Positions 1,893-54,600 of a DNA stretch of 58,857 bases are shown here, piece after piece (the first letter of the stretch is position 1; each line of letters opens with the position of its first letter). The position numbers and the translations under genes were made by a program. Source of the DNA: a virus (Duplodnaviria > Caudoviricetes). The stretch covers positions 1 to 58,857 of the IMG/VR virus record IMGVR_UViG_3300033067_001904; one strand, 5' to 3'. The notes under the pieces are model-generated. The model ran no database searches. It saw only the letters and a program-made list of their open reading frames with translations, and was not told the DNA's origin.

Positions 1893-1901
1893 ATCGTGTC
1901 C

Positions 1902-4712
1902 TTATGCGAGTTGGTTCACGCCGTAAACGGCGTTGGTGACGAAGTTGGGGCCAAAGCCATTGGGTTGCAGAGGCAGTGATGGCACCGTGTGCGTGGCATC
2001 CAGATACAACGGCGAGGCCACGGCACTCACCGCAGCGATATAGCCCGTGAGATGGCTCTGAATTGTGCTGCCGCTGTGCCGTGCGCCGATCATCACCCCA
2101 TTGCCACCGGAATTATCGAAGCCAATGCTTGCGGAAATGGTGGCAACGCTTACCAACGCACCGTTACGATAGAACCGGACTGCGGTTCCGTACCGCACCA
2201 CAGCAACGTGATACCAAGTGTTGGAGTCCCACGTAAGGGCACTTGATACCGCATCAGCGGCAGAGTTGCTGCGCGTCAGGATCAATGCGCCCGTGCTGGT
2301 GATTCCGAAGAACCATCCGGGGAAAGTGCCTTGGGGCGGGTTTGTTCCAAAGAAGGCTTTTTCTGATCCCGTCGCTGTCACTCGAACAAAACATTCAGCC
2401 GTGAAGTTTCCGGTCGAAAAACCCAAACGGGATTGGCCTGCGAGAACGAAATCGAGATAGCGTGATCCGTTGAACTCAAACGATTCAGTCAATCCAGATG
2501 GAGCGGTGGCATTCGTTAAAACGGCGTTACCGCTTGGAGTGCCGATTGCCGTCAATGTTCGTTGGTTGTTCCAGAACGTTGAATCCACCAATCCAAAATT
2601 AGGAACGGTCATCAAGAACTTGGTGTTCGCATCAGCCGTTGGAGCCGAAGCAGGCACAGTGAAATTGCTCGTGTAGAGCGCTTGGCCTACAACAAGTCTT
2701 GCGTAACTCAGGTAGCCGCCAACGAACCCGCCCAGCGATACCGTAGTGGGGGCATAGCTACCTGCATCAGTCCAACTTGCATCGGGAAATGTGGTCGCGT
2801 TGAACGTCGATCCAGTGTTTGTCTGAACCCCATCAACGAAGAACCGCATCACGCCCGATTGCCGGGTGACGGCAATGTGTGTCCACTTGTTGATGAGGTC
2901 TGTTCGCAGAAGAGGAGTAGGGCGGTAGACGGAGTTATTGCGCCATCGCAACCGACCCCCGTTGCCTGAAGAGGTCAGTTCCACTGCGTAGTTGCCACCA
3001 AGGGTGAAGATGGCTCCATCCAAGTTGTTCTGCGTGGTTGCCAAGTACAACCAAACGTCCATCGTGAAGTCTTCAGTGCCGATGGTGAAGAGATCGCGAT
3101 CAGGGTAGGCGGAAGAAACCGTACTGCCGGAAACGAGGGGAAAGTAGTAGCTTCCCGGTGCGGCAGCGCCAAACGGGCTGAATTCCGTTTGGTAGGAAAT
3201 ATTCGATTTCAGTTGGTGTCGACGCGAGGCGGCATCGAGCAACACAGGAGCAGCCACCAACAACATCACGGTGTTTGCAACTGCCGTCATCTTCTCAAGG
3301 GAAGGAAGAAAGTCGCTTGTGTAGAGCGCTGATTTGACGATCCGAAGATCACCGATCCAACCGGCGAAATCGACGGTGCCGTTGTTCGCGTTGTTTTTCG
3401 TTCCAACGGACAGAGGGTAGGAGCCATGCGTCATCGTGGCGGTTTGCGTGGCCGTAGCTTCTTGTTTTCCGTTCAGGAACAACGTCAGCGTGGTGCCGCT
3501 CTTCACGAAAGCAAAGTGATACCAGCAGTTCAACTGAAGCACTGAAGTGCTCGTAAGGGACTGTGTGCTCGTCAATGCCGTGCCCGTGCCGATTCGCGCC
3601 ACCAAGTTCTTAGTGGCATTCACGGTGATGCCGTACTGCGCGTTGCTTGTGTTGTTCTGATAGTCCTTGGCAAATACGATGGTCTCGGTCGCCTTGAACG
3701 CAGTGGCGTAGAACCAGCCTTCGCAAGTCCAATCACCTGTCGTCAGATCAAGTGCGGCACTGTTGTTGACGAACCAGCCATCGATTGAACCGTCAAAGTT
3801 GAACGATCCCGATCCGGGCACCGTTGTGTCCGTTGCGGAGAATGGATTGGCTTGACAAAGAGAAACGCCAGCACCTGCCAATACCGAAAGACCGTTGGTT
3901 CCGCGATTGAAGAAATACGGGCCGTTGCACATCAAAATCCGTGCAAATGCGTCCACGAGAACGGGCGTGGTGTTTGGCGTGAAGTTGGCTGAGTACAGCG
4001 CGTAGCTCGTCGCACGCACGTTAGAGATCATGCCGGTGAACGGGTTCGCCGAAAGACCGGCATTCACACCGATTGCCACGGGGCTGTTGGACGATCGCGG
4101 CGTGATGGTGAGTGGCGCTGTCGTGTAGGTGCCCGCAACGCTCACCGTGATGTTGCTGCCGTTGCGGCCACCTGAGATGTGAACCCAAGTATTGCGCGGC
4201 ACTGTGGCCGTGGACGTTGCGGTCTGCACCACGTTCGTAGCGTCCCAGATTCGCATCGTCACGGTGCGAGCTTGGGTGACCGTGAGGGCGTACCAGCCGT
4301 TGCCGCCGTTGATGAACTTCGAGATGACCTCAGCCCCGTTGATACCGGGAGTGGCGGTGAGATAGACCCACGCTTCAAGCGTGAAGTCGCCACTGAAGTT
4401 CAGAAATCCGATCGAATCGACAACCTGAAGGTAAGAGTTGCTACCGCTGAAGTCGCAAGACCAGTAGCCGTCGGGCCGGTAAGGGCTGGCGCTGCCAACG
4501 GATTGCTGGGCGTTCGACCCAAACTGGTTGTAGATTGTCAGGGCCGAGGGGCTTTCGTCTCGCGGAGCGCGGGAATCGTAGACGACACCGGGAGTGCCGA
4601 CGGCGTTGATGTTGAAGTTCTTCGTGACGGCAGCGACCCCACGAATTCGTGTCACCGATGGAAGAGCGCTCTTTGTGACGAAACCAGAACGGAGTGCGTG
4701 TGCGCCGCTCAT
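1902..4712 (-). CDS. Multi-LamG (concanavalin A-like lectin) receptor-binding protein, about 4 domains
   Basis: Four DFT/DWT/NFT-x-E/D motifs each followed by W-x-H-[IFV]-[SA] and G-x-I/L-x-x-x-R-like motifs. Confidence 0.85.
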   Translation of the reverse strand: MSGAHALRSGFVTKSALPSVTRIRGVAAVTKNFNINAVGTPGVVYDSRAPRDESPSALTIYNQFGSNAQQSVGSASPYRPDGYWSCDFSGSNSYLQVVDSIGFLNFSGDFTLEAWVYLTATPGINGAEVISKFINGGNGWYALTVTQARTVTMRIWDATNVVQTATSTATVPRNTWVHISGGRNGSNITVSVAGTYTTAPLTITPRSSNSPVAIGVNAGLSANPFTGMISNVRATSYALYSANFTPNTTPVLVDAFARILMCNGPYFFNRGTNGLSVLAGAGVSLCQANPFSATDTTVPGSGSFNFDGSIDGWFVNNSAALDLTTGDWTCEGWFYATAFKATETIVFAKDYQNNTSNAQYGITVNATKNLVARIGTGTALTSTQSLTSTSVLQLNCWYHFAFVKSGTTLTLFLNGKQEATATQTATMTHGSYPLSVGTKNNANNGTVDFAGWIGDLRIVKSALYTSDFLPSLEKMTAVANTVMLLVAAPVLLDAASRRHQLKSNISYQTEFSPFGAAAPGSYYFPLVSGSTVSSAYPDRDLFTIGTEDFTMDVWLYLATTQNNLDGAIFTLGGNYAVELTSSGNGGRLRWRNNSVYRPTPLLRTDLINKWTHIAVTRQSGVMRFFVDGVQTNTGSTFNATTFPDASWTDAGSYAPTTVSLGGFVGGYLSYARLVVGQALYTSNFTVPASAPTADANTKFLMTVPNFGLVDSTFWNNQRTLTAIGTPSGNAVLTNATAPSGLTESFEFNGSRYLDFVLAGQSRLGFSTGNFTAECFVRVTATGSEKAFFGTNPPQGTFPGWFFGITSTGALILTRSNSAADAVSSALTWDSNTWYHVAVVRYGTAVRFYRNGALVSVATISASIGFDNSGGNGVMIGARHSGSTIQSHLTGYIAAVSAVASPLYLDATHTVPSLPLQPNGFGPNFVTNAVYGVNQLA

Positions 4713-5047
4713 CAGACGATCTCCACTGCCGAGATGGTGGCGTGCAGGTAGTTGCCAGCGCTTGCCTGAACGCGAATCTTCTCGCCAGCCGAGAGGAAGA
4801 TTTTGTTCGGCACCACTTCAAGCGATGTGTCGGCGGGCACGGGGATCGTGAAGGCGAGGTAGGAGAGCAGCGTGTTGGCCGAGTCCGTCTTCAGCACGGT
4901 GATATCGGCGCTTGCGGTTCCGTTCACGTTTGCCACCAAGATGGAGACCACGATCGCCACCGTGCCTGCCGTGCTGGAGACTTGATAGAGATCGGTGATG
5001 CTTGTGTTGGCAAGCTGTACCTGTGCGTCTTTGAATGTGTTCGCCAT
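4712..5047 (-). CDS. Small beta-rich fibre adaptor protein
   Basis: MANTFK...ILVANVNG...IPVPADTSLEV...KIFL..GEKIRV pattern typical of fibre modules. Confidence 0.7.
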   Translation of the reverse strand: MANTFKDAQVQLANTSITDLYQVSSTAGTVAIVVSILVANVNGTASADITVLKTDSANTLLSYLAFTIPVPADTSLEVVPNKIFLSAGEKIRVQASAGNYLHATISAVEIV

Positions 5048-5050
5048 GAA

Positions 5051-6625
5051 TTACCCCAATGCCAAAGTGAGAGCGATGATTTCGTCGGTGCTGGCCCCTC
5101 CAGCGCCCCCGGAGATCACAATGTCGCCGGAGCCAAGAATGCTGTTGCCGTTGATCGTTTTGATGTTTGTGCCCGACACCAGCGTCGCCTGCGCGTAGCT
5201 GGTGTAGTTCCCGGCATGAAGGACTTGGTTGCCGGTGATCTGCACGGCGTTGCCAAGCGGGTTAAGGTTGAGCGGCTCGCTGCCCCAGCTTTGGATGTAC
5301 TTGTAGCCAACGCCCTTGCCCAGCGTGAGCGAAGTGCCACCGGACGGCGCGGCGGCGCTACTGTTGACATCCAAAATGCCTGTAAGCGTCCCCCCTGCCA
5401 GCGGCAAGTAGCTGCTCAGGGCGCTCGAAGTGATGTACCCGTTTGGGTTCGTCGCGTTGTACGGCGTGAACCCAAGCCCGGTCGTGATCTGGGCGGAGGT
5501 GAGCGTGCCGGTGTACGTGGGCAGATCAGCCGAGGCCAGAGATGCCCCAACGGTAACGCGCCCCTTCGCGTCCACTGTGACCTTCGTGTAAGTGCCCGCT
5601 GTGACGCCGGAGTTCGCAAGCGTCACCGCGATGCTGGTTGCACCCGAGCCGGTGGCATCGCCGCTGAGGGAGATGCTTTGATTGCCGGTGAGGAACGTCG
5701 TCCAGCCCAGCGTGCCGGTGCCGTTCGTGGTGAGAGCCTGTGCGCTGGTGCCGTCCGTGGCGGGCAGTGCCCATGTGAAGCTGCTGTTGACCACCGATGG
5801 GCTGCGAAATCCAACGTAGTTCGAGGTATCGGCGTCCCACAAGCGCATATCGCCGGAGGCTCGAACCGAGAGCGTGCCGTTTGCAGTGATGTTTTGAGCG
5901 CTAAGAATGTTGGCAGAGAAACTGACGAAGTTCGTGCCCTCATAGATTCGCATCTGAGGGGTGCTGCCCACGCCGCCGTCGTAGACCTGAATACCGGCCA
6001 TGAACGTGGTGCCAGAGGTGCCGGAGATCAGCCACGTGGCGTTGTTGCTCGTCCCCATCGTGATGTTGACGCCGCCCGTGTTCACCCCGTTCGTGGTGCC
6101 CCACGATGTGCTCAGGCCTGTGGCGAAAAGGCGAGGCACTGTGACGTTGCCTGTGAAGGTGTCGCCTGCTTTGTCCGAGGGGGAAAACCCCAGCGCCGTG
6201 GTCACATCGCCAGAGGCGAGCGATGCGCCCACCGTGGCTCGCCCGTAGGTATCGACCGTGATCTTCGTGTAGGTACCGGCAGTCACCCCACTGGTGGCGA
6301 GCGCGATCGTGCCCGTCGTGGTAATCGGCCCGCCCGTGAGGCCCGCGCCCGTGGCGATGCTCGTCACCGTACCGCTGCCGGAAGGTGACGAAGGCACAAA
6401 CTTTGTGCCGTCCCATGAGATCAAGCTGCCAGTGGCAATGCCGGTCATGTCCACATCGCCCAGCGCCGAAAGCAGGCCTGCACCCACTTGAACGACGACG
6501 CTTCCGTTGTGGATGTAGATTTTGCGGTCGGCCATGTTCACGCCCAATTCGCCGGAGGCGAGATCGGTCGTGGTGGGCACCTTCGCAGCGGTGGCCGAAC
6601 GTTTGGGCTTAAGGGTGTTTGCCAT
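5051..6625 (-). CDS. Fibre protein with Mtd-N-like N-terminus
   Basis: LKPKRSATAAKVP...LASGELGVN..DRKIY; two SGVTAGTYTK(I/V)TVD.GR repeats; GTNIKTING motif; ends IIALTLALG. Confidence 0.85.
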   Translation of the reverse strand: MANTLKPKRSATAAKVPTTTDLASGELGVNMADRKIYIHNGSVVVQVGAGLLSALGDVDMTGIATGSLISWDGTKFVPSSPSGSGTVTSIATGAGLTGGPITTTGTIALATSGVTAGTYTKITVDTYGRATVGASLASGDVTTALGFSPSDKAGDTFTGNVTVPRLFATGLSTSWGTTNGVNTGGVNITMGTSNNATWLISGTSGTTFMAGIQVYDGGVGSTPQMRIYEGTNFVSFSANILSAQNITANGTLSVRASGDMRLWDADTSNYVGFRSPSVVNSSFTWALPATDGTSAQALTTNGTGTLGWTTFLTGNQSISLSGDATGSGATSIAVTLANSGVTAGTYTKVTVDAKGRVTVGASLASADLPTYTGTLTSAQITTGLGFTPYNATNPNGYITSSALSSYLPLAGGTLTGILDVNSSAAAPSGGTSLTLGKGVGYKYIQSWGSEPLNLNPLGNAVQITGNQVLHAGNYTSYAQATLVSGTNIKTINGNSILGSGDIVISGGAGGASTDEIIALTLALG

Positions 6626-6644
6626 CGGTATTTACCTGAAAGAA

Positions 6645-6664
6645 CCCCCGGTCATTTGCCGGGG
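6645..6664 (-). terminator. Hairpin (weak terminator) between the two fibre genes
   Basis: Minus strand CCCCGG-CAAATGA-CCGGGG followed by GTTCTTTC. Confidence 0.4.
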
Positions 6665-6671
6665 ATCGTGC

Positions 6672-8042
6672 TTAGAACGTGCCGCCGTCGATCGTGCTGT
6701 TCGGATCGAGGTAATCCGTGCCAGCCACTGCCGCCGTGAAGGCGCTGGTTCCGTTGCCCTTCAGGATGCCGGTGAGCGAGGTGGCTCCCGTGCCGCCGTA
6801 GGCCACGCCCACCGTGCTGCCTTGCCACGTGCCCGTGGCGACTGTGCCCAGCGTCGTGATGCTGGTTTGGCCCACGTAGTTGGCGGCAATGTCCACGCCG
6901 CCTGCGCCCACCGTGATGCGGTTGCTTGTGCCCACCACGGCGAACACGTTGCCCGTGAGCGAGAGGCCGTTGCCGTTCAGGTATGAGCCAGCGCTCGAGA
7001 ACTGCGTGAACGCCACGCTTGTGGATTCGAGCGTGCCGCCTGCGTTAACCGTGCAAGTCCAGCCTGAATCAGCCAGAGTGCTGCCTTCCTCCACGAACAC
7101 GAAGGCGGAAACCAGTTCCGTCCATGTGTTCGCATCGGCGCTGCGTGTCCAGCCAGAGGCCGAGGCCACGTAGATGCCGTTCTGGCTGGCGGTGGACTGG
7201 TTCTTCACCAGCACGCGATCGCCAGAGGACACGGCAACGCCATCGATCGTTTGGGTGCCGGAAAGGGTGATGTTGGCCGTGGTGGCAACCTTCACCGAGG
7301 CCTTTACATCAAGGCCTTGGGCTACGCTGTCCACGTAGTTCTTCGTCGCCGCATCCTGTGCGGAAACGGGATCGGCCACGTTGGTGATCTTGAAGCCGCC
7401 GTTCGAAACATCAGCCGTCGGTGCGGTGAGATCGCTGCGCGAGGCGGTAGCGCCAACGGTGACACGGCCCTTCGCATCCACGGTCACCTTGGTGTAGGTG
7501 CCTGCGGTGACGCCGCTCGCGGCCAAGGTGAGCGAGATTGCCGTCGTGCCGCTGCCCGAGGCATCGCCAGAAACGGTGATCGACTGGTTGGCGGTGAGGT
7601 AGCTGGCGGTGTCCAGCGTCCACGTGTTAGCGGCGGTCTTCTTCAGCAGGCCCGATGTGCCAGCCAATGCAGCGATGGCATCGAGGTCGCCATCCCATGC
7701 TTGCACGTTAGAGCCGATGGCAAGGCCCAAGTTCGTGCGAGCCGTGGCGGCATCAGTGGCACCGGTACCGCCGTTGGCGACGGCAACCGAGCCAGTGAGC
7801 TTGGAGGCGGCAAGGGAAGTGATGAACGACGGATTGGCGTAGCTGCCGCTCAACTGCACGGCCCAGCCGGAACCGGCGATAGCCTTGATCTGCGTGGCCG
7901 AGCCGCCTGCGCCGCCCGTGCCGTAGCCGTAGTAAAGAATGTCGTCCTGTTCGTTGTAGGCCAGTTCGGCGTTCTGCAACGATGCCGGAGCGCCCGCTGC
8001 ACCACCTGCGGCGCGTCGCTTGATTCGAATCGGGTTTGCCAT
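6672..8042 (-). CDS. Fibre/head-decoration protein with Mtd-N-like N-terminus
   Basis: IRIKRR...LQNAELAYNE..DILYYG; DAATKNYVD; LSGTQTIDGV..GDRVLVKNQ...NGIY; ends IDGGTF. Confidence 0.85.
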   Translation of the reverse strand: MANPIRIKRRAAGGAAGAPASLQNAELAYNEQDDILYYGYGTGGAGGSATQIKAIAGSGWAVQLSGSYANPSFITSLAASKLTGSVAVANGGTGATDAATARTNLGLAIGSNVQAWDGDLDAIAALAGTSGLLKKTAANTWTLDTASYLTANQSITVSGDASGSGTTAISLTLAASGVTAGTYTKVTVDAKGRVTVGATASRSDLTAPTADVSNGGFKITNVADPVSAQDAATKNYVDSVAQGLDVKASVKVATTANITLSGTQTIDGVAVSSGDRVLVKNQSTASQNGIYVASASGWTRSADANTWTELVSAFVFVEEGSTLADSGWTCTVNAGGTLESTSVAFTQFSSAGSYLNGNGLSLTGNVFAVVGTSNRITVGAGGVDIAANYVGQTSITTLGTVATGTWQGSTVGVAYGGTGATSLTGILKGNGTSAFTAAVAGTDYLDPNSTIDGGTF

Positions 8043-8359
8043 CAGAAATTTCCTCCATCAACGAGATTGGCTTGCGGGTTGTTCACCCATTGGTTGCTTG
8101 AAAAGGCGAGAACGTCACCGTCAGAGAGCGAGCCGCTCAACTGAATCGGGAAGCCCCCAATCAGATTCGGCCCGGGCGCACCGGTTTCGCCGGGTTCGCC
8201 CTGATCGCCTTTGTCGCCCTTTGGGCCGCTTGCAGCCAAACCCGTCTCGATGGAGATCGTGCTGGCGATCACGCTTACATCGACGGAGGTGCCCGCCCAT
8301 GCTTCGGTGATCTCGATGGAGGATGCAGTCCAGTTCTGCTCGATGGTGATGCTGTCCAT
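8042..8359 (-). CDS. Short collagen-like connector protein
   Basis: GPKGDKGDQGEPGETGAPGP Gly-X-Y run; ends LVDGGNF. Confidence 0.8.
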   Translation of the reverse strand: MDSITIEQNWTASSIEITEAWAGTSVDVSVIASTISIETGLAASGPKGDKGDQGEPGETGAPGPNLIGGFPIQLSGSLSDGDVLAFSSNQWVNNPQANLVDGGNF

Positions 8360-10075: not shown

Positions 10076-11345
10076 CCTGATCTCCTGCGTTTTCAAAAGC
10101 CCCCAGCCAAGGGCTGATTCGGGCGAGGTTGGAGGGCTGCGCCCCGTAGATCGACGGGTTCACTGCCCTAAGTTTTTCCACGGCGAGCGCCAAGGCCATC
10201 ACGCAGTCATCGTGATAGCCCACGGGTGCCGAGTATCGGACACCGGTTCGCGTGTAGACGTATTCGAAGTTCTCCAACTCGGCCCGGATGGGGCCGTCGG
10301 GGAACTTCACAAGGCCGGTTTGGATGGCGACAACAAGGCCCTCCATCAGCTTTTGCTTGCTCGAGGCCGAGAACTTGAAGCCCTCGAACACGTTGTGGCG
10401 CTTCTTTTGCAGACGCTCGACCACCGGATCGCCCACCCCGGTGGAGTCAATGAGCGTGGGCGTGCGGCCCACGATCCCGAGAATTCTCGTTTCCGTGTCT
10501 TCCCACGGGCTTTGCCAGCGATCGAAGCCGCAGGTGACGCCGTGCCGATCCAGCCCGAGCGCCACGCTCCAGTCGATGCTCTTGGCGAGGTCGATGCCGA
10601 TGGCTGCGGGCGGCTCGGTGGACATAGGAGCCACGCAGGCGCGGATGTAGGCCATGCCGAAGGGGTTGCCTTCGTCCTCGCTCGGTTCGGCCAGATAGAG
10701 TTCCCGAAACACGTTCTCGGGCAGGAGGCGCTTGGCGTCCTCGATCTCCTTGATATCCAGCACGCCACCGGCTGCGGCGTCGTAGGCGTTCAACTTCGCG
10801 TAACTCATGCCCACTTCACCGGCCTCAGCCTTGCGGGCGAGCTTGAAGTGCCAGTTGGTGCGGCCCTTCACGTTCCCGATGATCCTCACCGGCCCCTTGG
10901 TGGCCGTGAGCGTGGAACGGACGGCGATCCATGAATCCTCACGGCAGCGCGAGGCCTCATCGATCACGGCGGCGAAAACGTCCTCACCGTAGAGGTTGTC
11001 CGGCTTCTCAGCGGACTTGAACCACACCACCGCCCCATTGGGCAGTTCGAGGCTCATCTCGGTCTCGTTGGCCTTGAACATGGCCTTGGGCAGGCCGCGC
11101 TTGATGCGTCGGAAGGCGATCTTCGCCTGTGGGTACACAGGGGCCACCCACCAGTAGTTGCGCCCCGGACGGCCATGAATGAAGGCCTGCTCCATGAGCC
11201 ACGCCATGCACCCCACGGTTTTGCCCGCCTTGGTGGAGGCCTCGATCAGCGCGTAACGGGCAGGCTTGCCCTCGATATCCACGCAATCGAAGATCGCCTC
11301 CCGTTGCCGGGGGTAGAGCCACGGGCGAACGTACTCAGCCCTCAC
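10068..11345 (-). CDS. terL: Terminase large subunit
   Basis: Walker A-like ASTKAGKT, WVAP, Walker B VIDEA, nuclease GIDLA and HDDCVMALAL. Confidence 0.95.
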   Translation of the reverse strand: MRAEYVRPWLYPRQREAIFDCVDIEGKPARYALIEASTKAGKTVGCMAWLMEQAFIHGRPGRNYWWVAPVYPQAKIAFRRIKRGLPKAMFKANETEMSLELPNGAVVWFKSAEKPDNLYGEDVFAAVIDEASRCREDSWIAVRSTLTATKGPVRIIGNVKGRTNWHFKLARKAEAGEVGMSYAKLNAYDAAAGGVLDIKEIEDAKRLLPENVFRELYLAEPSEDEGNPFGMAYIRACVAPMSTEPPAAIGIDLAKSIDWSVALGLDRHGVTCGFDRWQSPWEDTETRILGIVGRTPTLIDSTGVGDPVVERLQKKRHNVFEGFKFSASSKQKLMEGLVVAIQTGLVKFPDGPIRAELENFEYVYTRTGVRYSAPVGYHDDCVMALALAVEKLRAVNPSIYGAQPSNLARISPWLGAFENAGDQDE

Positions 11346-11838
11346 CGCGCTCCCCGATCTTCAGGGTGAACGTGACCACCTGTTCGGTGCCGTCGTTGGC
11401 CGTTTGCTTGGCCTGCACCTGAGCATTCAGGCCGTCGTCGCGCCAGCCGTGTTGCTTGAGGATGAAGATCGCGGCGGTGTTCGCGGCCTTCATGTCCCGG
11501 GTCTGGGTGGCGTTCGAGTACAGGTTGTTCACCACCCGGGCCAGCATCTTCGACTTGCCGTGGGCGAGTTCGGCTTCGTAGTGCTTCCTCAGCGTCGGCT
11601 CAGAGATGCCCACCACGGCTGCGGCCTGTTCGTGGGTCATGTTGGCGAACATGCACAGGGCCACAAGCGATCGGGTTTGATCGGTGGGCACGTGTGCTGG
11701 CACCCCGCCCCTTTTTTTCAATGGGGAAAGATGGGGCGGAAGGGGTGCGATCGCACCGGCAGGGTTTGCGGGCTTCGCGGCTTTCTTCGCTGGGGCCTTG
11801 ATGGCTTTCGCGGGGGCTTTCTGTGGGGTGGCTTTCAT
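11335..11838 (-). CDS. terS: Terminase small subunit
   Basis: HTH segment ISEPTLRKHY..EL..G, AAIFILK..GW; overlaps terL start. Confidence 0.85.
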   Translation of the reverse strand: MKATPQKAPAKAIKAPAKKAAKPANPAGAIAPLPPHLSPLKKRGGVPAHVPTDQTRSLVALCMFANMTHEQAAAVVGISEPTLRKHYEAELAHGKSKMLARVVNNLYSNATQTRDMKAANTAAIFILKQHGWRDDGLNAQVQAKQTANDGTEQVVTFTLKIGERGEG

Positions 11839-11866
11839 AGGCTCTCATTATCGTGTTATCAGCCTA

Positions 11867-11910
11867 TTGACACTTTCTCATTTCGACGGTGTAATATCAC
11901 CACTGTGATA
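11867..11910 (+). promoter_or_regulatory. Sigma70 promoter with downstream 16-bp operator
   Basis: TTGACA (11867)-17 bp-TGTAAT (11890); operator TATCAC-CACT-GTGATA at 11895-11910. Confidence 0.8.
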
Positions 11911-11940
11911 CGGAATCACAGAGAAACAGGAGAAAACGCA

Positions 11941-12162
11941 ATGCAAACGAAAACGAACGAAACCCCGATGGCCCGGGCACTGAGCCGGGTCGAGAACCTT
12001 GTGACCGGCATGGGGTATGAGCGGATCAACCCCGAATCGCTCATGGCGCTGGGTGATGCCCTCGAGCGCGATGAGGAATGCGTGGAGTTCGAGATGAACG
12101 ACCACGGCGCTTACCGAATGGTGATGCGCGGCTTCCACGCCCTGTTCGCGGAGGCAGCATGA
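11941..12162 (+). CDS. Small acidic hypothetical protein, first gene of cassette 1
   Basis: GGAGAAAACGCA leader directly before MQTKTNETP. Confidence 0.8.
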   Translation: MQTKTNETPMARALSRVENLVTGMGYERINPESLMALGDALERDEECVEFEMNDHGAYRMVMRGFHALFAEAA

Positions 12163-12740
12163 ACTTCGCCGCCACCGACAAAGCGCTGGGCAAGCTGATC
12201 GAGACCCGCCCTTGGATCGCCAGCATCGACACCGATGAACCCGGCAACTGGATCGTGACCCTGCATGAGCCTTGGTGCTTCTACCTCGATCCCGGCTGCG
12301 GGGTGCGAGGGTTTGATTCCCTCTCTGAGGTGAAGAAGAGCACTACTGCGCTGGATGTGTACCAAAAGGTGCCTGCCGCTACTTTTGAGAAAGTAGAAGC
12401 GCACGAAGTGACACCGGCCCTCGAGGCTTTCATCCTCGGGATCGCCCGGGGCGTGGCCGATGCGAAGAAGGCCTTTGCGAAGAAGCGCGGGCGCAAGTCG
12501 ATGCTCACCCCGGTGCTGGAAGGCCTCGAGGCGGGCACCATCCTGCCCCTCGAGTTCGCATCCGAGTCGAACTACACCTACAACCGGCACGCCGACCGGC
12601 TGCACAAGCTGGCCTTGGAGGGCAACCTCGAGGCGCTCGAGGCCATCGAGATCAGCGGCGTGAACACCTATGCGAAGGCCCTGCGCGGGTACCGGGATGC
12701 CCTGATCAGCCACCTCCTGAAGAAGGCAGGTGCCGCATGA
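12159..12740 (+). CDS. Two-domain hypothetical protein; C-terminal helical domain resembles repeats of the 1398-aa effector
   Basis: Start MNFAATDK (ATGA overlap); C-terminus LALEGNLEALEAI..SGVNTYAKAL. Confidence 0.8.
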   Translation: MNFAATDKALGKLIETRPWIASIDTDEPGNWIVTLHEPWCFYLDPGCGVRGFDSLSEVKKSTTALDVYQKVPAATFEKVEAHEVTPALEAFILGIARGVADAKKAFAKKRGRKSMLTPVLEGLEAGTILPLEFASESNYTYNRHADRLHKLALEGNLEALEAIEISGVNTYAKALRGYRDALISHLLKKAGAA

Positions 12741-13672: not shown

Positions 13673-13936
13673 ATGGCATCAATCTGGATTCAGCGGGCCG
13701 GAGAGGCCCAGCCCCTGAAGATGAAGGGGCACCTCGACACGGCGATCGCCAAGCGCCTGTTCGACCAGTACCTGATCTGGTGGGATCAGGACGAGAAGCA
13801 GAAGGCCGAGCGGGTGTTCAAGTACGAAGCGATCCTGAAGCGCAAGGGCAAAATCAAGGCGCTGATCTTCGTGGAGTTTCACTCGGTGCCCAGCGCGGAG
13901 GAACCCGGTCAACCCAAGCGAAAGGCCACCGCATGA
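13673..13936 (+). CDS. Hypothetical protein
   Basis: AAGGAG RBS before MASIWIQ. Confidence 0.7.
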   Translation: MASIWIQRAGEAQPLKMKGHLDTAIAKRLFDQYLIWWDQDEKQKAERVFKYEAILKRKGKIKALIFVEFHSVPSAEEPGQPKRKATA

Positions 13937-14354: not shown

Positions 14355-14806
14355 GGAAGCGCACCCGTCGCAAGGTCTGGGGCTTGCTGAATCCAGTGCA
14401 GCACGCGATCGAGGGCGCGGCCTACGTTCCCGAGGCACTGCTCGCTCCCCTGCGCCTGCGTGAACTGGCTGCGATCGAGTCCTTCCGCACCGGCAGCGCC
14501 GGGTTGCAGGAGTGGCACGACGTAAACGCCATGCACGGGCTATGCGAGACGATGGCGAAGGAAGGCATCGGCCCCGAGGCCCTCGAGGCCTGCGAGCGCT
14601 GTGAGCACCACCTCATCGAGGCGGCTCGTCGGTTCGAGCGCACCGGCAAGATGGGCACCACCGGCCCCGGGTTGCAGGCGTTCCGCGATGTGTTCGACTA
14701 CCACGACCTGCAACGGCAGAGCGTGGCCCGGGCCACCTACGATCAGATGATCCGGCTTACCACGGCGCGGATTCGGTCACGCGCCCCGGGCGTCACTGTC
14801 CTTTGA
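14351..14806 (+). CDS. Hypothetical phage protein
   Basis: GGAGG RBS; basic N-terminus MRKRTRRK. Confidence 0.75.
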   Translation: MRKRTRRKVWGLLNPVQHAIEGAAYVPEALLAPLRLRELAAIESFRTGSAGLQEWHDVNAMHGLCETMAKEGIGPEALEACERCEHHLIEAARRFERTGKMGTTGPGLQAFRDVFDYHDLQRQSVARATYDQMIRLTTARIRSRAPGVTVL

Positions 14807-16105
14807 GGCCTTGGCCTTCTTGGCCTTGGCTTGCTTCTTGTCCTGCTTGCCCTGCTCGTTGCCCACCAGCTTGCCCGGGGCACGCTCGCCCATGACCTCG
14901 GTGAAGGTGCGCCCGTCGGCCTCGAGGATCGCGTGCTGGCCGGTGAAGGCCTGCCAGCGCAGCACCCCCACATCGACGTAAGCTGGCTCGAGTTCGATGG
15001 CGTGGCACGTGCGGCCCGTCATTTCGCACGCAATGATCGTGGTGCCGGAGCCGGAGAACGGCTCATAGATGGCATGGCCGGGGCTTGAGTTGTTCTCGAT
15101 CGGGCGCTTCATGGCGTCGACCGGCTTCTGGGTGCCGTGGCCGGTGTCGCTCTTGGCGTGATCGATCTGCCACACGGTCGTCTGCGAGCGATCGCCCGCC
15201 CAATGCCCGGTTGCGCCGTCGCGCACCACGTACCATGCCGATTCGTGCTGCGGGTGATAGTGGCCCCGGGAGAGCACCATGCGGCTCTTGGCCCACACGA
15301 TCTGGGCGCGAATCTTGAACCCGGCTGCGATCAGGCTGTCGGCAACCGTGTGCGCGTGGATCATGCCGTGCCACACATAGGCCACATCCCCGGGGAACAG
15401 CGCCCACGCCTCACGCCAATCGGCCCGGTCGTCGTTCTGCACCTTGCCCTCGGCACGCTTTGCGCCGTCCTTGAGCGCCTTCGAGCGCCAATCCGGGTCG
15501 TACTCCACGCCATACGGGGGGTCGGTCACCATCAGGTGAGGCTTCACCCCGTTCAAGGCCTTGTTCACGGCATCCACGCTGGTTGAGTCGCCGCACACCA
15601 GCCGGTGACGGCCCAGCACCCACACATCGCCCGCCACGGCCACGGGAAAGTCCGGGGTGGGGGGCACATCATCGGGATCGGTGTTGCCGTCGGTGCCGAG
15701 CGGGGCAAGCAACTTGTCCAGTTCATCGACGGAAAAGCCGATGAGGCCGAGATCGAAGTTCGCCATGTTGAGATCGGCCAACTCGAGGCGAAGCAGGTTC
15801 ATGTCCCAGCCAGCGTTCTCGGCGAGCTTGTTGTCGGCGATCACCAGCGCACGGCGTTGCTCGGGCGTGAGGCCCTCGATCGTGATGGTGGGCACCTCGG
15901 CCAAGCCGAGCTTCTGAGCCGCCATGAGCCGCCCGTGGCCCGCAATGATCTCGCCCGCCTCGTCGCACAGGATCGGGTTCGTCCAGCCCCATTCCTTGAT
16001 CGCGGCGGCGATCTGGGCGATCTGAAGGTCGGAGTGGGTGCGCGAGTTCTGTGCGTAAGGCACAAGGGCGGCGACGGCCCGGTAGGTGACGGCGAGTTGT
16101 TGCAT
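14777..16105 (-). CDS. ParB-N domain fused to N4/N6 DNA methyltransferase
   Basis: NSRTHS..QI, IIAGHGR, IADNK (ParB-N); TDPPY, HGTQKPV, EPFSGSGTT (MTase). Confidence 0.92.
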   Translation of the reverse strand: MQQLAVTYRAVAALVPYAQNSRTHSDLQIAQIAAAIKEWGWTNPILCDEAGEIIAGHGRLMAAQKLGLAEVPTITIEGLTPEQRRALVIADNKLAENAGWDMNLLRLELADLNMANFDLGLIGFSVDELDKLLAPLGTDGNTDPDDVPPTPDFPVAVAGDVWVLGRHRLVCGDSTSVDAVNKALNGVKPHLMVTDPPYGVEYDPDWRSKALKDGAKRAEGKVQNDDRADWREAWALFPGDVAYVWHGMIHAHTVADSLIAAGFKIRAQIVWAKSRMVLSRGHYHPQHESAWYVVRDGATGHWAGDRSQTTVWQIDHAKSDTGHGTQKPVDAMKRPIENNSSPGHAIYEPFSGSGTTIIACEMTGRTCHAIELEPAYVDVGVLRWQAFTGQHAILEADGRTFTEVMGERAPGKLVGNEQGKQDKKQAKAKKAKASKDSDARGA

Positions 16106-16120
16106 GGCTTTCTCTGGGCG

Positions 16121-16143
16121 AAAAAAAAGCGCCACGTGGGCGC
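16121..16143 (-). terminator. Rho-independent terminator just upstream of the methylase
   Basis: GCGCC-CACGT-GGCGC followed by T8 on minus. Confidence 0.7.
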
Positions 16144-16260
16144 ATACGACTTGAACTGCCCCAAGGGGGGCCACCGAGCGGGGAGGTTTGGGAGAAAACG
16201 CATTGACGCCCGGTGGCCTAAGCGAAGCCGCAAGCCCGGAGAGGCAACGGATTCACCATG
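16121..16260 (-). ncRNA. Putative trans-acting antisense small RNA
   Basis: 12-bp stem (16169-16218, with a G-U pair possible only on minus) enclosing a 26-nt pyrimidine-rich loop, then a small hairpin and a terminator; candidate -10 TACGAT at 16266-16271; 5' end uncertain. Confidence 0.6.
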
Positions 16261-19159: not shown

Positions 19160-20623
19160 TCAGTCTTTCCCGGCCACCAGCGGCTCGAAGCGTCGAGCTT
19201 CAAAGTGGAAGCGAGCAAGGAACTCGCCGGGGACGCCGATCTCATCGTGGTAGCGGCTCTTCGCCACCTTGATCAGCGTGAGGTTGTCGCTCTCACGGTG
19301 AACCACCACCCCGAGATCGGCCTTGTTGTACCAGTGAGCCGAATCGGAAATGTCGTACAAGGTGGGCACACGGTAGTTGCCCTTCTCATCCTTCTGGGGC
19401 TTGGCCGGGTGAGCCACAACGATCAGGTGAATCATGAGCTTTCGAGCGAAGCGCTTGAGCGTCTTGATGGCGCGGCCCACGTATTCGGTGAGGCTCTCGC
19501 CTTGGCCCTTGTTGTGATCCATCTCGTTCCACGGGTCGATCACTACCACCTTGCAACCGTGCTGAATCACGGCGGCTTCCATGCGATCGAGCACCCAATC
19601 GAGGCTCACATCGTCGTCTTCGCTGGGCACCATGAACGTGAAGTGCTGGTCGATCCAGCGATCAGCCGCCTTCAGTTCATCGACGGTGCAATGCTGGACG
19701 GGCCTGCCGCACTTCCATGTCCGCAGGTTGCGCTTGTGATCGCGCTGGGGTGATTGCTCGAACGACGCGAAGGCCACGTTCAGGCCGTGGTACTCCACCA
19801 GTCGGCAGCACACATCGTTCACCAGCGAGGACTTGCCGTGCGAGGGAATGCCCGTCCACACGGCCATGTCGCCCAGCCGGGCCTTGTAGTGATCGCGAAA
19901 CACCGGCATCCCAATGTCGTAGATCGGGGCGTGCGCCACGGGAGGCAACTCGCTCATGCGGTAGATGCCATCGACCTTCATCCATGCGGCCCGCTCGAGC
20001 GTCTTCTTCACGCCCGCCTGCCCGTAATGGTGAAGCACCTCGTTCAAGTCCTTCAGGCGCTTTGAGCCATCGGGGTGCATGGGGTAGGTGAGGAACTTGC
20101 ACCGGTACTTGCCCAGCCGGATGCTCAGGTCGTGAAGCAGGTTAGCGCCCGCATCGTCGCCATCGACGGCGAGGATGATCTCGGGCACCCGGTCGACCGC
20201 GAAAAGGCCCTTGGCCCCGTCGAGGAAGCTGTACTTCACCGAGTTCTCATCCACGATGATCTCGGCGGGTGCCCCGTCCGGCACGCTCACGGTACGGGTG
20301 AAGCCGCACTGAATCGCGGTGAGGGCGTCGATCTCGCCCTCGGTGATGATCAGCGGCGTGCCGAAGAGGGATTCATCCCGAAGAATGTCCTCGTTCCACA
20401 CGCACTTGATGCCGCCCTTGTCCTGCCAGAACTTCTTCTCGGCCCCAAGGGTGCGGAACTTGCGATTGACCACCTTCCCTTCGCGAAAGAAGGGGATGAC
20501 CAGCGCGTCGTTACCAGAACCGTTTCGGAGGGCGTGCAGGCCCTTTTCCGAAGCCAGTTCCCTGTCGATTCCCCGCTCTTCCAGCTTTGAAGCCAGCGCT
20601 TCCGTGAGTTGTGTTGTTTCCAT
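19160..20623 (-). CDS. Twinkle/T7 gp4-like TOPRIM primase + DnaB-like helicase lacking the Zn domain
   Basis: ITEGEIDAL, SVPDGA, AVDGDDAG, KDLNE; Walker A TGIPSHGKS; VIDPWN; VAHP; GGAGGT RBS. Confidence 0.92.
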   Translation of the reverse strand: METTQLTEALASKLEERGIDRELASEKGLHALRNGSGNDALVIPFFREGKVVNRKFRTLGAEKKFWQDKGGIKCVWNEDILRDESLFGTPLIITEGEIDALTAIQCGFTRTVSVPDGAPAEIIVDENSVKYSFLDGAKGLFAVDRVPEIILAVDGDDAGANLLHDLSIRLGKYRCKFLTYPMHPDGSKRLKDLNEVLHHYGQAGVKKTLERAAWMKVDGIYRMSELPPVAHAPIYDIGMPVFRDHYKARLGDMAVWTGIPSHGKSSLVNDVCCRLVEYHGLNVAFASFEQSPQRDHKRNLRTWKCGRPVQHCTVDELKAADRWIDQHFTFMVPSEDDDVSLDWVLDRMEAAVIQHGCKVVVIDPWNEMDHNKGQGESLTEYVGRAIKTLKRFARKLMIHLIVVAHPAKPQKDEKGNYRVPTLYDISDSAHWYNKADLGVVVHRESDNLTLIKVAKSRYHDEIGVPGEFLARFHFEARRFEPLVAGKD

Positions 20624-20852
20624 TCCCAAAACCTCCATGCCAGCCGCAATGAAGGCAGTTCCAAACCCCTTCCCCAGCTTCCAAAATTCCCGATGTAATC
20701 CTTGTGGGGCCAACGGCCACCGAAAGGCACTTCTTTCGTCGGTTCAAGCCCTTGCGCGAATCGCTGCACTGAGGGCACAAGCCGTAGTGATTGCCCGGGG
20801 TGAGCGGCACATCGATGCCGAGTTCCCGAAAGCGCGTCGTGAGATCGGCCAT
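20511..20852 (-). CDS. Stand-alone primase zinc-binding domain
   Basis: CPQCS..RK...KCLSV...VWNCLHCGWHG. Confidence 0.8.
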   Translation of the reverse strand: MADLTTRFRELGIDVPLTPGNHYGLCPQCSDSRKGLNRRKKCLSVAVGPTRITSGILEAGEGVWNCLHCGWHGGFGNGNNTTHGSAGFKAGRAGNRQGTGFGKGPARPPKRFW

Positions 20853-21673
20853 CACCCACCCCCCGCTGCCATCGGCAGGTATGAGGGGTTGTTCTCGAGC
20901 ATGTAGCGCTCGGTCGCGGTGAGGGGCCGTCCGTTCCACATGCCCGAGGCAAGCGCCTGTTGCCGGGGGTCGGAGGGTGTGGTGGGCACATCGGCCCAGC
21001 GGCCTTGGTTGAGCCACGTGGTCGGGTGGGCGATGTACTGAGGGTCTTTCCCAACGCACGCCTTGGCGAAGGCCTGAGCGGCCTCGGCGAGCGCTTCGGT
21101 GGGGTGAGGGTGCTCCACCAGCTTCACGGCCCGCTCGAAGGCCTTGGCGGCGGCGAGCTTGCCCTCCTTCCGGGGGTAAGCTGCCCAGAACACCTCGAAG
21201 CCCTTCGGCAGCTTTGCACCGGGCTTCTTCGAACTCACCTTCGATCGTCCATCCGAAGGTGGGCGATCGGGCAAGTCTTTCTCTTCTGTATCTGTATCTG
21301 TATCTGTATCTGGGGCGTTACTTTGCCGTTGCTGTAACGTTACATCGGCGTTTCCGGTGTCCCTTTTCTTGGCGCGATGCCTTGCAACCCGCGCCGCGCT
21401 TGAGTCCGAGGCAAACTGCCGCTTGTCCCAATTCGCCAGATTCCAATGCTGGTCGATGAACCCGCGAGCGATGAAGAGGGCCTTCATTTCGGCCAACTGT
21501 TCATCGGTGATGCGGAGGTAGAACGCGATCTCTGTTTCTTGTAACGTTTCAAGAACGTTACTGCAACGAAGGCACATGAGCATGATGTAGCGGCGCTGCA
21601 TCGTCTCGGAGAGCATCTGTACCTTCGGGTCATGCGCGAACTCGGCGTAGAGCCGGAACCAAGGGTTTGCCAT
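20852..21673 (-). CDS. Replication initiator (O/DnaD-like)
   Basis: WFRLYAEF..DPKV, NWDKRQF.SD.S..RV..HR, FE.FW.AYPRK.GK, HPTTWLNQ.RW.D. Confidence 0.85.
   Translation of the reverse strand: MANPWFRLYAEFAHDPKVQMLSETMQRRYIMLMCLRCSNVLETLQETEIAFYLRITDEQLAEMKALFIARGFIDQHWNLANWDKRQFASDSSAARVARHRAKKRDTGNADVTLQQRQSNAPDTDTDTDTEEKDLPDRPPSDGRSKVSSKKPGAKLPKGFEVFWAAYPRKEGKLAAAKAFERAVKLVEHPHPTEALAEAAQAFAKACVGKDPQYIAHPTTWLNQGRWADVPTTPSDPRQQALASGMWNGRPLTATERYMLENNPSYLPMAAGGG
21287..21311 (+). repeat. (TGTATC)n hexamer tandem encoding DTDTDTDT
   Basis: About four tandem copies seen directly. Confidence 0.9.
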
Positions 21674-21753: not shown

Positions 21754-21780
21754 AGCAACCTCCCAAGCCTCCACAAGGGG

Positions 21781-51660: not shown

Positions 51661-54600
51661 TTACGAACCAATTCCCAATTCGCCCGGGGGCAGCATGAGC
51701 ACGGTGATCTCCATGCGCGTGCCGCTTCCGCTCTTGCCCGGTACCTCTTCGACCTTCTGGATCAGGAAGCGTGAGTTGGGCAGCGTGGTGATCTCCTTCT
51801 CGGAGGCGAAGCCACCAGAGCCGAAGCTGTCCACGGCCTTCGCGCCCTTGGCGTACACGATGTTGATCCGGTGCGGCCCGAAGTGCTGGGTGGCCGTGGG
51901 CGACATGGAGGTACACATCGAGCCGGTGGCCTGAAACACGGTGCCCGGGCCTGCCTGCTTGATCTTGTTGATCATGTCGGCGCTCATGTGCTGCCAGCGA
52001 TGCACGGTCGTGCCCTCGGGCTTCTCTTGCGCGTACTCGAGCGCGGCCTTTGCCACATCGGCCAGCTTGTGCCCGTTGTGGTCGGTGGCTTTGCCGTCGC
52101 GGAAGAGATCGTTGTAGGAGCCGGAGGCTTGGATGCCGTTGATGAAGGCCTTGGCGAGCTTGTTCGTCTTGGTCTTCTCGGTGTAATCCACGTAGGCCTG
52201 CTTCACCGCCGCCTCGGACACCGACATGGTTTTCTTCGGCATGAAGCGCTCGGGTTGCGCCACCTTGCCCAAAGCCACCCAGAAGCCGAGCTTCTCGTTG
52301 GCCTTCACCTTGTTCACGGTCGTGCCGAACTTCTTCCCCGGCATGGCCGCATCGATATCGGCGAGGCTCTTGGCCGTCGTCGCATCGAACTGCTTCAGAG
52401 GCTGAGGCGGGTAGGCCACCTCGCGCATCACCACAAGGCAGGCGTCGAAGTACGCCTTCAAGTCCTTGGCGGGGTGATCGGAGATGTGCTTCTGGCCCAC
52501 CACCTTGCCGGTTTCCTTGTCCAGCACATCGAACGTCATCGCGGCCAGTTCGTGATAGTTCCCGGCGAGGAACTTCGATTGAACGAGGTTGGCGAGCGTG
52601 TTGTTCTGTTGGTTCACGTGCGCCTTGGACGATTTGTCGAACAAGGGCTTTGGCGGGTTGGAGACGTTGCTCATATCGAGCTTCGTCATGTCGGGCTTGC
52701 CGCCCACCGTAGCTGGGTGAGGCTGCGGCTGCGGCTGCTTCACGGCCACCGTGGCTTGGCGCAACTGTTGAACCGTGGCCCCGCCCGTGAGGGCCGAGTT
52801 GGAGTTCTTGGTTTGGCCGGTGGCGACGACGGCAGAAGAACCCAACGCCTTCAAGGCGCTGTTGGCAAGCGCCACCTGCTTCTTCGCATAGGTGTTCGTG
52901 CCGTAGGCCAGCGCCGCGATCCCGGCTGCGTCGCCCTTGGCGGCGAGCGAGGAAATCAGGTCGACCTTTGCGTTGTGCGAAGTTGCGTTGGAGTTGCTCG
53001 AGGGCAGCTTGTACGCATCGAAGTTCGGCATGGCCGGATTCGGTGCCTTCGCCTCCTTCGGCTTGGGCGGGTTCACCACCGGCTCGCTGATCGCTTTCTG
53101 CGCGGCCTGCGCGGTCGCCACCGTGGTTGCGGCGGTCGTGCCCTCGAGCGAAGCGATGAGGCCCGCATAGTGGCCTTGCAGGAGCTTCGAATTTGGAGAG
53201 GTGTGGCTGGTGAAGTATTTGCCGTTCTTAGGATCGGCGGCGAGCGCCTTCAAGCCTGCGAGGTCGCCCTGCGCGTGCAACGCACCAGCCTTGTCGGCCA
53301 ACGCGCCGTAGAACTTGGTCACGTTCTCGCTCGAGGCCTTGAACTCGGGCTTCTTCACGCCCTCGGGGTTCCCGAAGAGTGTGGTGAGGAAATCTGGCGA
53401 ACTCTCGGCAATCTTCTTCGCGTCGGCGGCGATCTTGCCCTTGAGGTTGGCGATGTGATCGGTGGCGTTGGCCCACACCTCGGATGCGTTGTCGAGATCG
53501 GCCTCGTTCTTCGCCAGATTCAAGTTCATCTTGGCCGTGGCTGCGGCAAGCCCGAGGCCAGCCATATCGCCCTTGTCGGCAGCGAGTTGCACTGCGGCGG
53601 CGAGCGTCTTGTGATGCTCGGCGGCGTCCTTGGAGAGCTTTGGCGGGAGGATTTTGTAGGTATCGGCCTTGACGTTTTCAACGATCTTCTTTCCGGCCTC
53701 GGACAACGCATCCACGGTCTCTTTGATCTTGGCCTGTACGGCTGGATCGGCCTTCGATGGCTTGGAGGCTGCGGGCGTGGCCTGCGGGGCAGGGGCGCTC
53801 ACGGCGGCGGGAACCTTCAAACCTGTCTTGGCGAGGATGGCGTCGCGGCGTGCGATCAAGTTCTCTGCGAGCGCGGCTTTGGCCTTGGCATCGCCCGGGC
53901 CGTAGGTGTTCACCAGCTTGGTGATCGTCGCGTCGTCAATCTGCGCGAGCTTCTGTGCGCTGGCTGCGAGTTGCTCCTTCGTCATCGAGCCGAAAACCTT
54001 CATCTGCTCGGATGTGGTCACCCGCATCGATTCGAACTCGGGCGCGGTGGCATCGAGCACACCGTTCACCACGCCGTGCATCAAGCCCTTCGGTTGGCCT
54101 TGAGCGCGGAAGAGCAAGGCACCACCCGGATCGATGTTGATGGCCTTGCCATCCTTCACCACGGTGTTGTCGAAGCCCATGCCCAGAACGTCGTAGTTCG
54201 CGAGCCACGCATTGACGGCGAAATCGGCTTGGGCTGCGGCCACGTGCGCCGGGTTGGTGGGGTTGAAGGCTGCGGCACCGGACACCATGAGCGAGGCCAC
54301 GCCCAGCCCGCCGCCGTGCTCCTTGCCCAGATCGACCAGCCCCATCGTCGGAGCGCCCACGCCTGCGGCGATCAGCAACTTCGAAGAGAGCACCTCGTTC
54401 TTGGCCCGGTCGTCGCTCACGGCGAGCGTCACCGCGCCGGTTTGCAGTTGCTTGTTGCCCTTCACAAGGTAGATGCTGTTCGGCTCGTCCGGGTGTTTGT
54501 AGAGCGCACCGGGGTTCGAGCCACCGGGCTTCGCGCCCACTTGCTTGAACTCGGAGAGCTTCACCGGCCCTTGGATCGCATCGGCGCTGGCCGAGGCCTT

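Follow-up and report, generated by a model that had tools for sequence, protein, structure and literature searches.

Introduction

In phage T4, a catalytic ADP-ribosyltransferase is found both in Alt, a head-packaged protein that is injected, and in ModA and ModB, small proteins made post-infection. This arrangement is the nearest functional analogy for the locus studied here, wherein one type of domain likewise occurs in a large head-linked protein and in small proteins. Unlike in T4, the shared domain here appears to be helical and devoid of catalytic function, and production of the small protein after infection is a prediction. The comparison between Alt and ModA/ModB is summarised in the introduction of PMC9503650. 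Section 3.7.1 of that paper also describes MuF-linked packaged effectors, in which an ADP-ribosyltransferase and a NUDIX domain have genes for MuF, portal and terminase as neighbours and would be delivered together with the DNA. The effector described below differs in not being a fusion, as it has a gene of its own that lies two genes downstream of MuF.

A second relevant class is that of the polyvalent proteins. According to the section 'LPDs' of Iyer et al. (2017, J Bacteriol, PMC5512222), polyvalent-protein domains without known function also occur solo near phage structural genes. Like polyvalent proteins, the effector of our locus (P0002) unites more than one effector domain on a single chain, and its gene lies with head genes. 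Unlike those in the sections that we consulted, it holds several copies of one putatively non-catalytic domain per chain, the multi-copy domain there being the ADP-ribosyltransferase. The repeat described here is not mentioned in the sections of PMC5512222 and PMC9503650 that we consulted. Both the solo/polyvalent domain pattern and the head-packaged delivery of ADP-ribosyltransferase and NUDIX domains have already been described. Here, we report that a helical module common in uncultured phages, and so far devoid of annotation, forms the C-terminal part of a small phage protein and is probably present in three to four copies in the effector of the same phage. This link to virion-type effectors provides a first functional foothold for the module in phage dark matter.

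Gene content of the window

The window, that is, the whole stretch of DNA analysed here, is a 58,857-base IMG/VR virus record, 97% complete and with 61% G+C. PHROG annotation of 55 ORFs identified it as a temperate tailed phage with a long non-contractile tail, carrying an integrase (30280-31410), a repressor-like gene (22380-23075) and replication genes (19160-21766). The small terminase, large terminase and portal genes lie on the minus strand (11838-8711), and the small-terminase-like gene (11335..11838, minus strand; phrog_309 and phrog_12540) diverges from an operon of small genes. A second minus-strand block comprises, in this order, a MuF-type head-morphogenesis gene (56722..57927; phrog_3517, E 1.2e-59), a 234-aa gene, the 1398-aa effector gene, a 175-aa gene, protease, scaffold and major capsid (48252-49238), and continues beyond the latter with tape measure, a J-like protein and tail fibres. 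Searches by blastn and tblastn with the small-gene region and the small protein of the window gave no match in 50,697 phage records.

The small gene, P0001 (12159..12740, plus strand, stop codon included), encodes a 193-aa protein. The call is supported by its translation, 14 relatives and a GGAGG located 5 nt before the ATG, and the protein start M-N-F/I-A-A is identical in all close homologs. An N-terminal alpha/beta head (aa 1-85; 12159..12413, plus strand), delimited from AlphaFold2 secondary structure, precedes the C-terminal helical module (aa ~110-193, ~85 residues; 12486..12737, plus strand), which is the conserved core of the family. BLAST clustering of the heads found that of P0001, among 152 representatives, only in P0001 and P0012.

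P0001 is not the first gene of its operon. Directly upstream lies a conserved 73-aa acidic ORF (11941..12162, plus strand), whose TGA overlaps the ATG of P0001 (ATGA) and which has a 69-aa homolog in a related phage (L002, 2795-3004). Further upstream, we read by eye a sigma-70-type promoter-like site that points toward the small genes (TTGACA, 17 nt, TGTAAT; 11867..11895, plus strand). The initial annotation had assigned P0001 to an early cassette. On the one hand, the operon diverges from the small-terminase gene, reading away from the packaging genes, and the site read by eye is near consensus; on the other hand, a strict promoter scan of 11780-12220 called none. The scan missed the site at 11867-11895 because it demands an A at position 2 of the second hexamer. 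The same intergenic interval showed no notable repeats. Judging from the promoter-like site read by eye, P0001 would be expressed early.

The effector gene, P0002 (51661..55857, minus strand), encodes a 1398-aa polyvalent protein in which two or more distinct effector domains lie on a single polypeptide. A NUDIX domain (aa 171-288; 54994..55347, minus strand) matched Pfam PF00293 with E 7e-11. It is followed, beyond a first helical unit, by a kinase-like domain (aa ~430-680; 53818..54570, minus strand), wherein K466, E488, D556, N564 and D576 are invariant in 21 homologs and may be read as kinase motifs; this domain had no Pfam or PDB sequence match. An ADP-ribosyltransferase domain (aa ~1150-1398; 51664..52410, minus strand) closes the protein, with E1353 and E1355 invariant. 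PF03496 was weak in P0002 itself (E 0.025, below cut-off) and clear in homologs (E 2.2e-12 and 6.8e-7). From the N-terminus, the order is thus NUDIX, unit A, kinase-like domain, an Ala/Pro-rich linker and helical stretch B, units C, D and E, and ADP-ribosyltransferase. Across the effector family, the units are combined with NUDIX, WGR, Acb1, Zeta-toxin and ADP-ribosyltransferase domains, and the family is a swap-shop of counter-defence domains around these units. The gene of P0002 sits among head genes; presence of the protein in the virion rests on the annotation of one homolog, a 2146-aa protein of Yersinia phage fHe-Yen8-01 called 'phage particle associated protein'. A literature search found no paper mentioning the name fHe-Yen8-01. 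Cultured carriers also include Pseudomonas putida phage Dolphis and Aeromonas phage ST4.

A widespread module family

When 1.84 billion representatives were queried with a profile made from 11 small-protein modules, a module family of 415 clusters at 50% identity emerged (E <= 1e-3). Small proteins with the module make up at least 414 clusters at 90% identity. Almost all of the family stems from uncultured phages, with a few members from alphaproteobacterial genomes. Among the 120 small relatives listed, none had a precomputed Pfam domain, and NCBI names were found for two, both 'hypothetical protein' (Elioraea tepida and a Stellaceae MAG).

In the family alignments, conservation was confined to the C-terminal part of the proteins: the N-terminus varied and invariant columns fell in the module alone. 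Two motifs stood out, L-E-F-x-S-x-x-N-Y-x-Y-N-R-H-A and G-x-N-T-Y-A-K-A-L-x-x-Y-R, and module positions G27, N39, G68, N70 and Y72 were near-invariant in the small family. The conserved residues are Gly, Asn and Tyr, located where helices begin and at turns; the small-family alignments showed no conserved set of acid/base or metal-binding residues. The module and its upstream flank were mildly basic, with median net charges of +2 and +3, respectively, and a core pI of about 9, which would neither prove nor exclude nucleic-acid binding by the module. Some members carried Lys/Ala/Pro-rich tails.

Domain libraries were mostly silent on this family. At E <= 1, no Pfam model matched P0001 or the module units of P0002. 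Pfam was empty for 135 of 139 family members and no model fitted the module at E <= 0.001; a weak Phage_int_SAM_1 match occurred in P0075 only (E 9.6e-4, below cut-off). Six of 146 members matched phrog_24512, a PHROG family without assigned function, while NCBIfam returned nothing consistent on the members; for P0001 itself, PHROGs and NCBIfam likewise gave nothing consistent. A sequence profile search of the PDB gave a best E of 0.12, and sub-threshold HU matches (E 0.12-0.92) fell on the flank upstream of the module. The ESM Atlas had no usable match. Like LPD-type domains, the module occurs in polyvalent proteins and could not be unified with known domains in the libraries searched. It would thus be a new domain at least in those libraries (Pfam, PHROG function, NCBIfam and PDB), LPD1-LPD40 having been compared through those LPD models that are in Pfam.

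Homology between the small-protein module and the effector units

The initial annotation had noted that the C-terminus of P0001 resembles an effector segment at ~52860-53030, and had proposed about five such units in the effector. Direct comparison by BLASTP was suggestive only: aa 134-173 of P0001 aligned with aa 953-992 of the effector (16/41 identical, E 0.004 in a single comparison), and aa 132-186 with aa 838-904 (21/67, E 0.068). A first narrow small-protein profile scored 7 bits on the effector. The decisive profile was built from small proteins only (159 domains from 152 proteins), with no effector sequence included. The window has 817 stop-to-stop frames with a length of at least 40 aa, of which the profile matched just two: P0001, with 117 bits, and that of the effector, with 17.7 bits and E 1.9e-4. 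The next-best frame had E = 1.

We then turned to 38 effector-family proteins gathered independently, by similarity to aa 720-1130 of the effector. With the same small-protein-only profile, 32 of them had a best domain of at least 10 bits, and 64 domains reached at least 8 bits. As controls, 38 reversed sequences (maximum 5.0 bits) and 380 locally shuffled ones (maximum 7.5 bits) yielded no domain at or above 8 bits. When 21 effector homologs were aligned, all domains of at least 5 bits mapped to the five sites proposed initially. The same five sites were recovered as the five alternative alignments between the small family and the effector family by hhalign.

Support differed from site to site. 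Unit D (aa ~944-1009; 52831..53028, minus strand), which holds G-T-N-T-Y-A-K and corresponds to the segment first noticed, was the best supported. It accounts for the 17.7 bits in the window effector, scored at least 8 bits in 20/21 homologs and was aligned by hhalign over columns 885-1010 (72.4%, E 3.3e-5). Ten of its residues (N955, N957, S960, N962, K964, D976, G986, T987, N988 and Y990) are invariant in the 21 homologs, and in the BLASTP alignment N957, G986, N988 and Y990 face N39, G68, N70 and Y72 of the small family. Few stretches of the effector family outside its catalytic parts are as well conserved as unit D. Unit A (aa ~340-400; 54658..54840, minus strand) was supported as well (columns 280-412, 73.9%, E 2.9e-5), with 12/21 homologs at 8 bits or more and a top score of 25.6 bits. 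So was unit C (aa ~836-905; 53143..53352, minus strand; columns 815-916, 88.9%, E 2.4e-6): the hhalign alignment spanned the entire unit, and the sequence profile reached 8 bits in just 1/21 homologs. Unit E (aa ~1066-1135; 52453..52662, minus strand; columns 1026-1152, 21.8%, E 9.8e-4) was marginal, with 3/21 homologs at this level.

Because units A, C and E of the window effector scored low by themselves with the small-protein-only profile (4.8, 1.1 and 0.5 bits, respectively), their support comes from the homologs and from profile-profile comparison. An iterated profile that included effector units gave 41 bits for A, 10.8 for C, 66.8 for D and 12.8 for E, but it is circular for this effector and was therefore used for boundaries only. 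The proposed unit B (aa ~725-790; 53488..53685, minus strand) was rejected as a copy of the module, with an hhalign probability of 0.1% (columns 732-791, E 0.4), 1/21 homologs at 8 bits or more, and -5 bits even with the iterated profile. Hence, of the five positions in the initial annotation, those near 54745, 53260 and 52860-53030 held, that near 52555 was marginal, and that near 53560 did not hold. Collectively, these comparisons indicate that the small-protein module and the effector units are homologous by common descent, with three to four copies in the effector. The domain boundaries are now clean for dissecting such giant proteins, including the kinase-like domain that no library recognises.

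Architecture and predicted fold of the module

Nearly half of the representatives (71/152) consisted of the module with fewer than 50 aa on either side. Since they are essentially the module alone, the module would be functional on its own. Another 61/152 had a head of at least 50 aa, these heads falling into 24 BLAST groups, one with 36 members; the module came first in 16/152 and several modules were present in 4/152. In P0090 (760 aa), the N-terminal half lacks annotation and is followed by two units in tandem and then by an H-E-x-x-H region, and P0075 combines a T5orf172 domain with three units.

The module is predicted to be a small self-folding helical bundle. An AlphaFold2 model of aa 100-193 of P0001, computed from 146 sequences, had four helices with a pLDDT of 88 and a pTM of 0.74; the model of the whole protein added the alpha/beta head (pLDDT 75). 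Neither model had a PDB match at E <= 0.001, the module model having been searched with Foldseek. The best structural neighbours of the module model were the TPR-like repeats of Rgg/RopB/NrpR, with Z values of 6.4-6.7 and an rmsd of 1.9-3.1 over 51-55 residues. These Z values, including the best one from VIA-align (6.7, Rgg/RopB-type), lie below the level that the tool states as meaningful for helical models, within its noise range. Unlike TPR units, which span 34 residues, the module unit spans ~65-85, and no sequence or TPR Pfam match was found. In BFVD, five uncharacterised family members from uncultured phages were retrieved (E 2.8e-7 to 1.9e-4). A large phage protein with a NUDIX domain was also matched over part of its length, at a sub-threshold level (E 1.2, probability 0.87). 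A predicted complex of the small-protein module with aa 830-1012 of the effector had a score of 0.00, which speaks neither for nor against binding.

A putative binding module in solo and built-in forms

The reading that we favour, with roughly even confidence, is that of an autonomous non-catalytic binding module, which occurs in solo and built-in forms and gives the polyvalent protein an extra valency instead of acting as a spacer. We read it as a binding module because it lacks enzyme-like conserved residues and because, in hundreds of small proteins, it is what stays constant, nearly half of them being little more than the module. In the head-associated effector, the module is built in three to four times, between the NUDIX, kinase-like and ADP-ribosyltransferase domains. 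A first deployment would then use the module pre-made inside the large protein, which may be carried by the virion in relatives, and a second one would rely on module newly made from the operon behind a host-type promoter. If true, the phage uses one part both pre-packaged and newly made. We infer that the module binds something and that both forms bind the same thing, as we do the expression timing. Candidate ligands are DNA, a host hub, an immune signal and a capsid component. If the target is a host or immune component, a non-enzymatic class of weapon would be added to the polyvalent effectors.

A more specific version, unlikely though conceivable, is that the module forms a family of small autonomous counter-defence binders, for instance a sponge for an immune signalling nucleotide or a blocker of a host sensor, delivered in two waves, as packaged, diverged repeats of the injected multi-enzyme protein and then by fresh synthesis from the host-promoter operon beside the packaging genes. 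The packaged repeats would act beside the signal-degrading NUDIX and, in relatives, Acb1, and the conserved Asn/Tyr/Arg positions might constitute the ligand site.

Co-occurrence of the two genes

The initial annotation went further and linked the two loci into one system. Accordingly, the array of units would keep both kinase and ADP-ribosyltransferase at a single host target, and P0001 would serve as an early decoy, adaptor or competitor. The shared domain on which this model is built is real, and the conservation of unit D suits it as well. We looked at the distribution of the two genes among 12 complete or near-complete genomes: six had both, two the array only, one the solo gene only and three neither. 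Both genes were found in the window and in five related near-complete records, which form one clade (large terminase 65-95% identical). The small protein occurred in each of 11 records from the clade's loci. Five of these records have a completeness of 90% or more; in four of the five, an ORF of more than 1300 aa was matched as well by the small-protein profile, and the fifth, G002, had an effector homolog with units below threshold. Also in keeping with one system, three cultured capsid-related phages, Pseudomonas phage KPP23, Roseobacter phage RDJL Phi 1 and Rhizobium phage RHph_Y60, showed no module at E <= 1. Where KPP23 and RDJL Phi 1 are annotated, MuF was not followed by a large gene; for RHph_Y60, the capsid stretch of the annotation was viewed.

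However, since the six genomes that carry both genes come from a single clade, they amount to roughly one event. Beyond this clade, the two genes come apart. Two cultured phages, Yersinia phage fHe-Yen8-01 (2155-aa frame) and Aeromonas phage ST4 (1181-aa frame), have units inside giant frames only, with no small module protein at E <= 1. Conversely, the 96%-complete phage G013 encodes the small protein, and a match to the effector was lacking at E <= 0.01. Moreover, for most family members nothing points to a partner array. The data thus do not support an obligate two-part system; co-occurrence held among the six related phages and failed in these three. We regard the one-target model as unlikely, if worth keeping in mind, and a looser functional kinship of the two genes is possible.

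Spacer, packaging tag or chance resemblance

A further explanation is that the unit is a structural helical spacer without specific ligand, reused as a scaffold or oligomerisation piece, so that the similarity would reflect descent and not function. Several traits agree with this: the conserved residues are structural in kind (helix caps, turns, aromatic core), the units are placed between enzymatic domains, units A, C and E have strongly diverged from D, and the fold is that of a generic helical bundle. Yet a spacer leaves unexplained the 71/152 representatives that are close to module alone, and the ten invariant, mostly polar residues of unit D persist in 21 homologs down to 39% overall identity. 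We therefore deem a mere spacer improbable and retain the binding module as our preferred reading.

The position of the solo gene bears on another explanation, according to which the module is a packaging or ejection tag that binds the capsid interior, the portal/MuF or packaged DNA, the effector and the small module-bearing proteins being loaded into heads and entering the host with the DNA. The solo gene adjoins packaging or virion genes in three unrelated lineages. At 20/20 viral loci retrieved with narrow motifs, all from one clade, portal, large and small terminase genes lie on one strand and the module gene diverges from them. In an Elioraea MAG, the solo gene is 340 bases from a lambda-type gpA terminase gene, and in G013 it sits between tail-fibre and lytic-tail-protein genes. 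Three distant single family members used as queries returned nothing in viral contigs, and an alignment (A2) nothing in genome contigs. The location of the effector gene in the head-morphogenesis block, the particle-associated annotation of one homolog, the mild basicity of the module and flank and the Lys/Ala/Pro-rich tails of some members would also fit a tag. However, each of the three lineages has its structural genes on one strand and the solo gene on the other, so that the latter is not co-transcribed with them. Furthermore, a single tag would be enough for one polypeptide, yet three to four units are present. We consider a tag quite unlikely; the position of the solo gene fits a separately transcribed accessory gene.

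Last, a chance or compositional resemblance between two Ala/Leu-rich helical stretches, for which one could invoke the modest pairwise BLASTP value and the low score of the first narrow profile, is very improbable and is refuted as far as sequence statistics go, since the effector was the sole match besides P0001 among 817 frames, the control sequences were empty, and the domains fell at the same five sites in 21 homologs with hhalign values down to E 2.4e-6.

A 16-nucleotide string common to both genes

The two genes also share a 16-nt string, as noted in the initial annotation. We found it exactly twice in the window, at 12662-12677 (plus strand) and at 52882-52897 (minus strand), the latter copy being inside unit D; none was expected from 100 shuffles. 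We rejected the string as a functional DNA site: it encodes N-T-Y-A-K, and this conserved peptide together with codon bias largely accounts for the match, so that the string is a by-product and not a DNA element. Given the codon usage of the window, the probability of identical codons for the same pentapeptide is about 0.05. Over the 39 codon-aligned positions around the string, DNA identity was 59%.

Genes around the module gene

The gene for the small module-carrying protein follows a conserved ORF that encodes an acidic protein of 73 aa (11941-12162, + strand) and is joined to it by ATGA translational coupling. In the window sequence, an AGGAG is also found 5' of this acidic ORF, as is a promoter-like site, TTGACA-17-TGTAAT (11867-11895, + strand). 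The small protein is therefore the product of the operon's second gene. A 69-aa homolog of the acidic ORF is encoded at positions 2795-3004 of the related locus L002.

On the 3' side of the module gene lies a small gene (13673-13936, + strand), whose product starts with M-A-S-I-W and ends in a conserved S-x-P-S-A-x-E-P-G-Q-P-K-R tail. Of the 20 related loci, 12 gave a tblastn match to this gene, and ORF listings of related loci include it too. A gene for a ParB-like nuclease/DNA methyltransferase fusion protein (14777-16174, - strand) is convergent with the operon; tblastn detected this fusion in 15 of the 20 loci. Between the record's start and the portal gene, about 8 kb are occupied by large virion or tail-fibre-like genes (119-8359, - strand), a block outside the main tail block, which lies at 33-47 kb. 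One of its products, a 936-aa protein, matches baseplate-wedge and virion structural families.

A partner domain of the module

In several module-carrying proteins, the module is accompanied by a recurrent domain of ~40 aa, which has a basic helix and, C-terminal to it, G-x-D-F ... W, and for which a Pfam search returned no match. Lys/Ala/Pro-rich linkers connect the two, and their order varies: the domain is N-terminal in P0096 and P0104, and C-terminal in P0127, P0133, P0171, P0137, and P0143. P0096 and P0104 belong to the largest group of heads (N-terminal parts of at least 50 aa), which accounts for 36 of the 61.

Domains and motifs of the effector

Conservation within the effector family is highest at aa ~430-680 (53818-54570, - strand). 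This domain contains the invariant residues K466, E488, D556, N564, and D576, whose spacing resembles that of the catalytic residues of protein-kinase-like folds; Pfam and PDB sequence searches gave no match. It may represent an unrecognised kinase family.

The domains around the units are exchanged between effector homologs. In P0026 of the related phage record G003 (L013, 355-4665), a WGR domain occupies the place of the window effector's stretch B. P0046 combines a NUDIX domain with a following Acb1 anti-CBASS phosphodiesterase, and P0044 contains a Zeta-toxin/AAA domain.

Finally, a short motif, R-W-P-x-G ... G-G-Q-F/W, is present before NUDIX (aa 24-40; 55738-55788, - strand) and again before unit A (aa 318-333; 54859-54906, - strand). 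It might serve as a processing or head-targeting signal. A similar motif, R-D-x-x-G-R-W, lies on the N-terminal side of the units in the module-carrying protein P0090.
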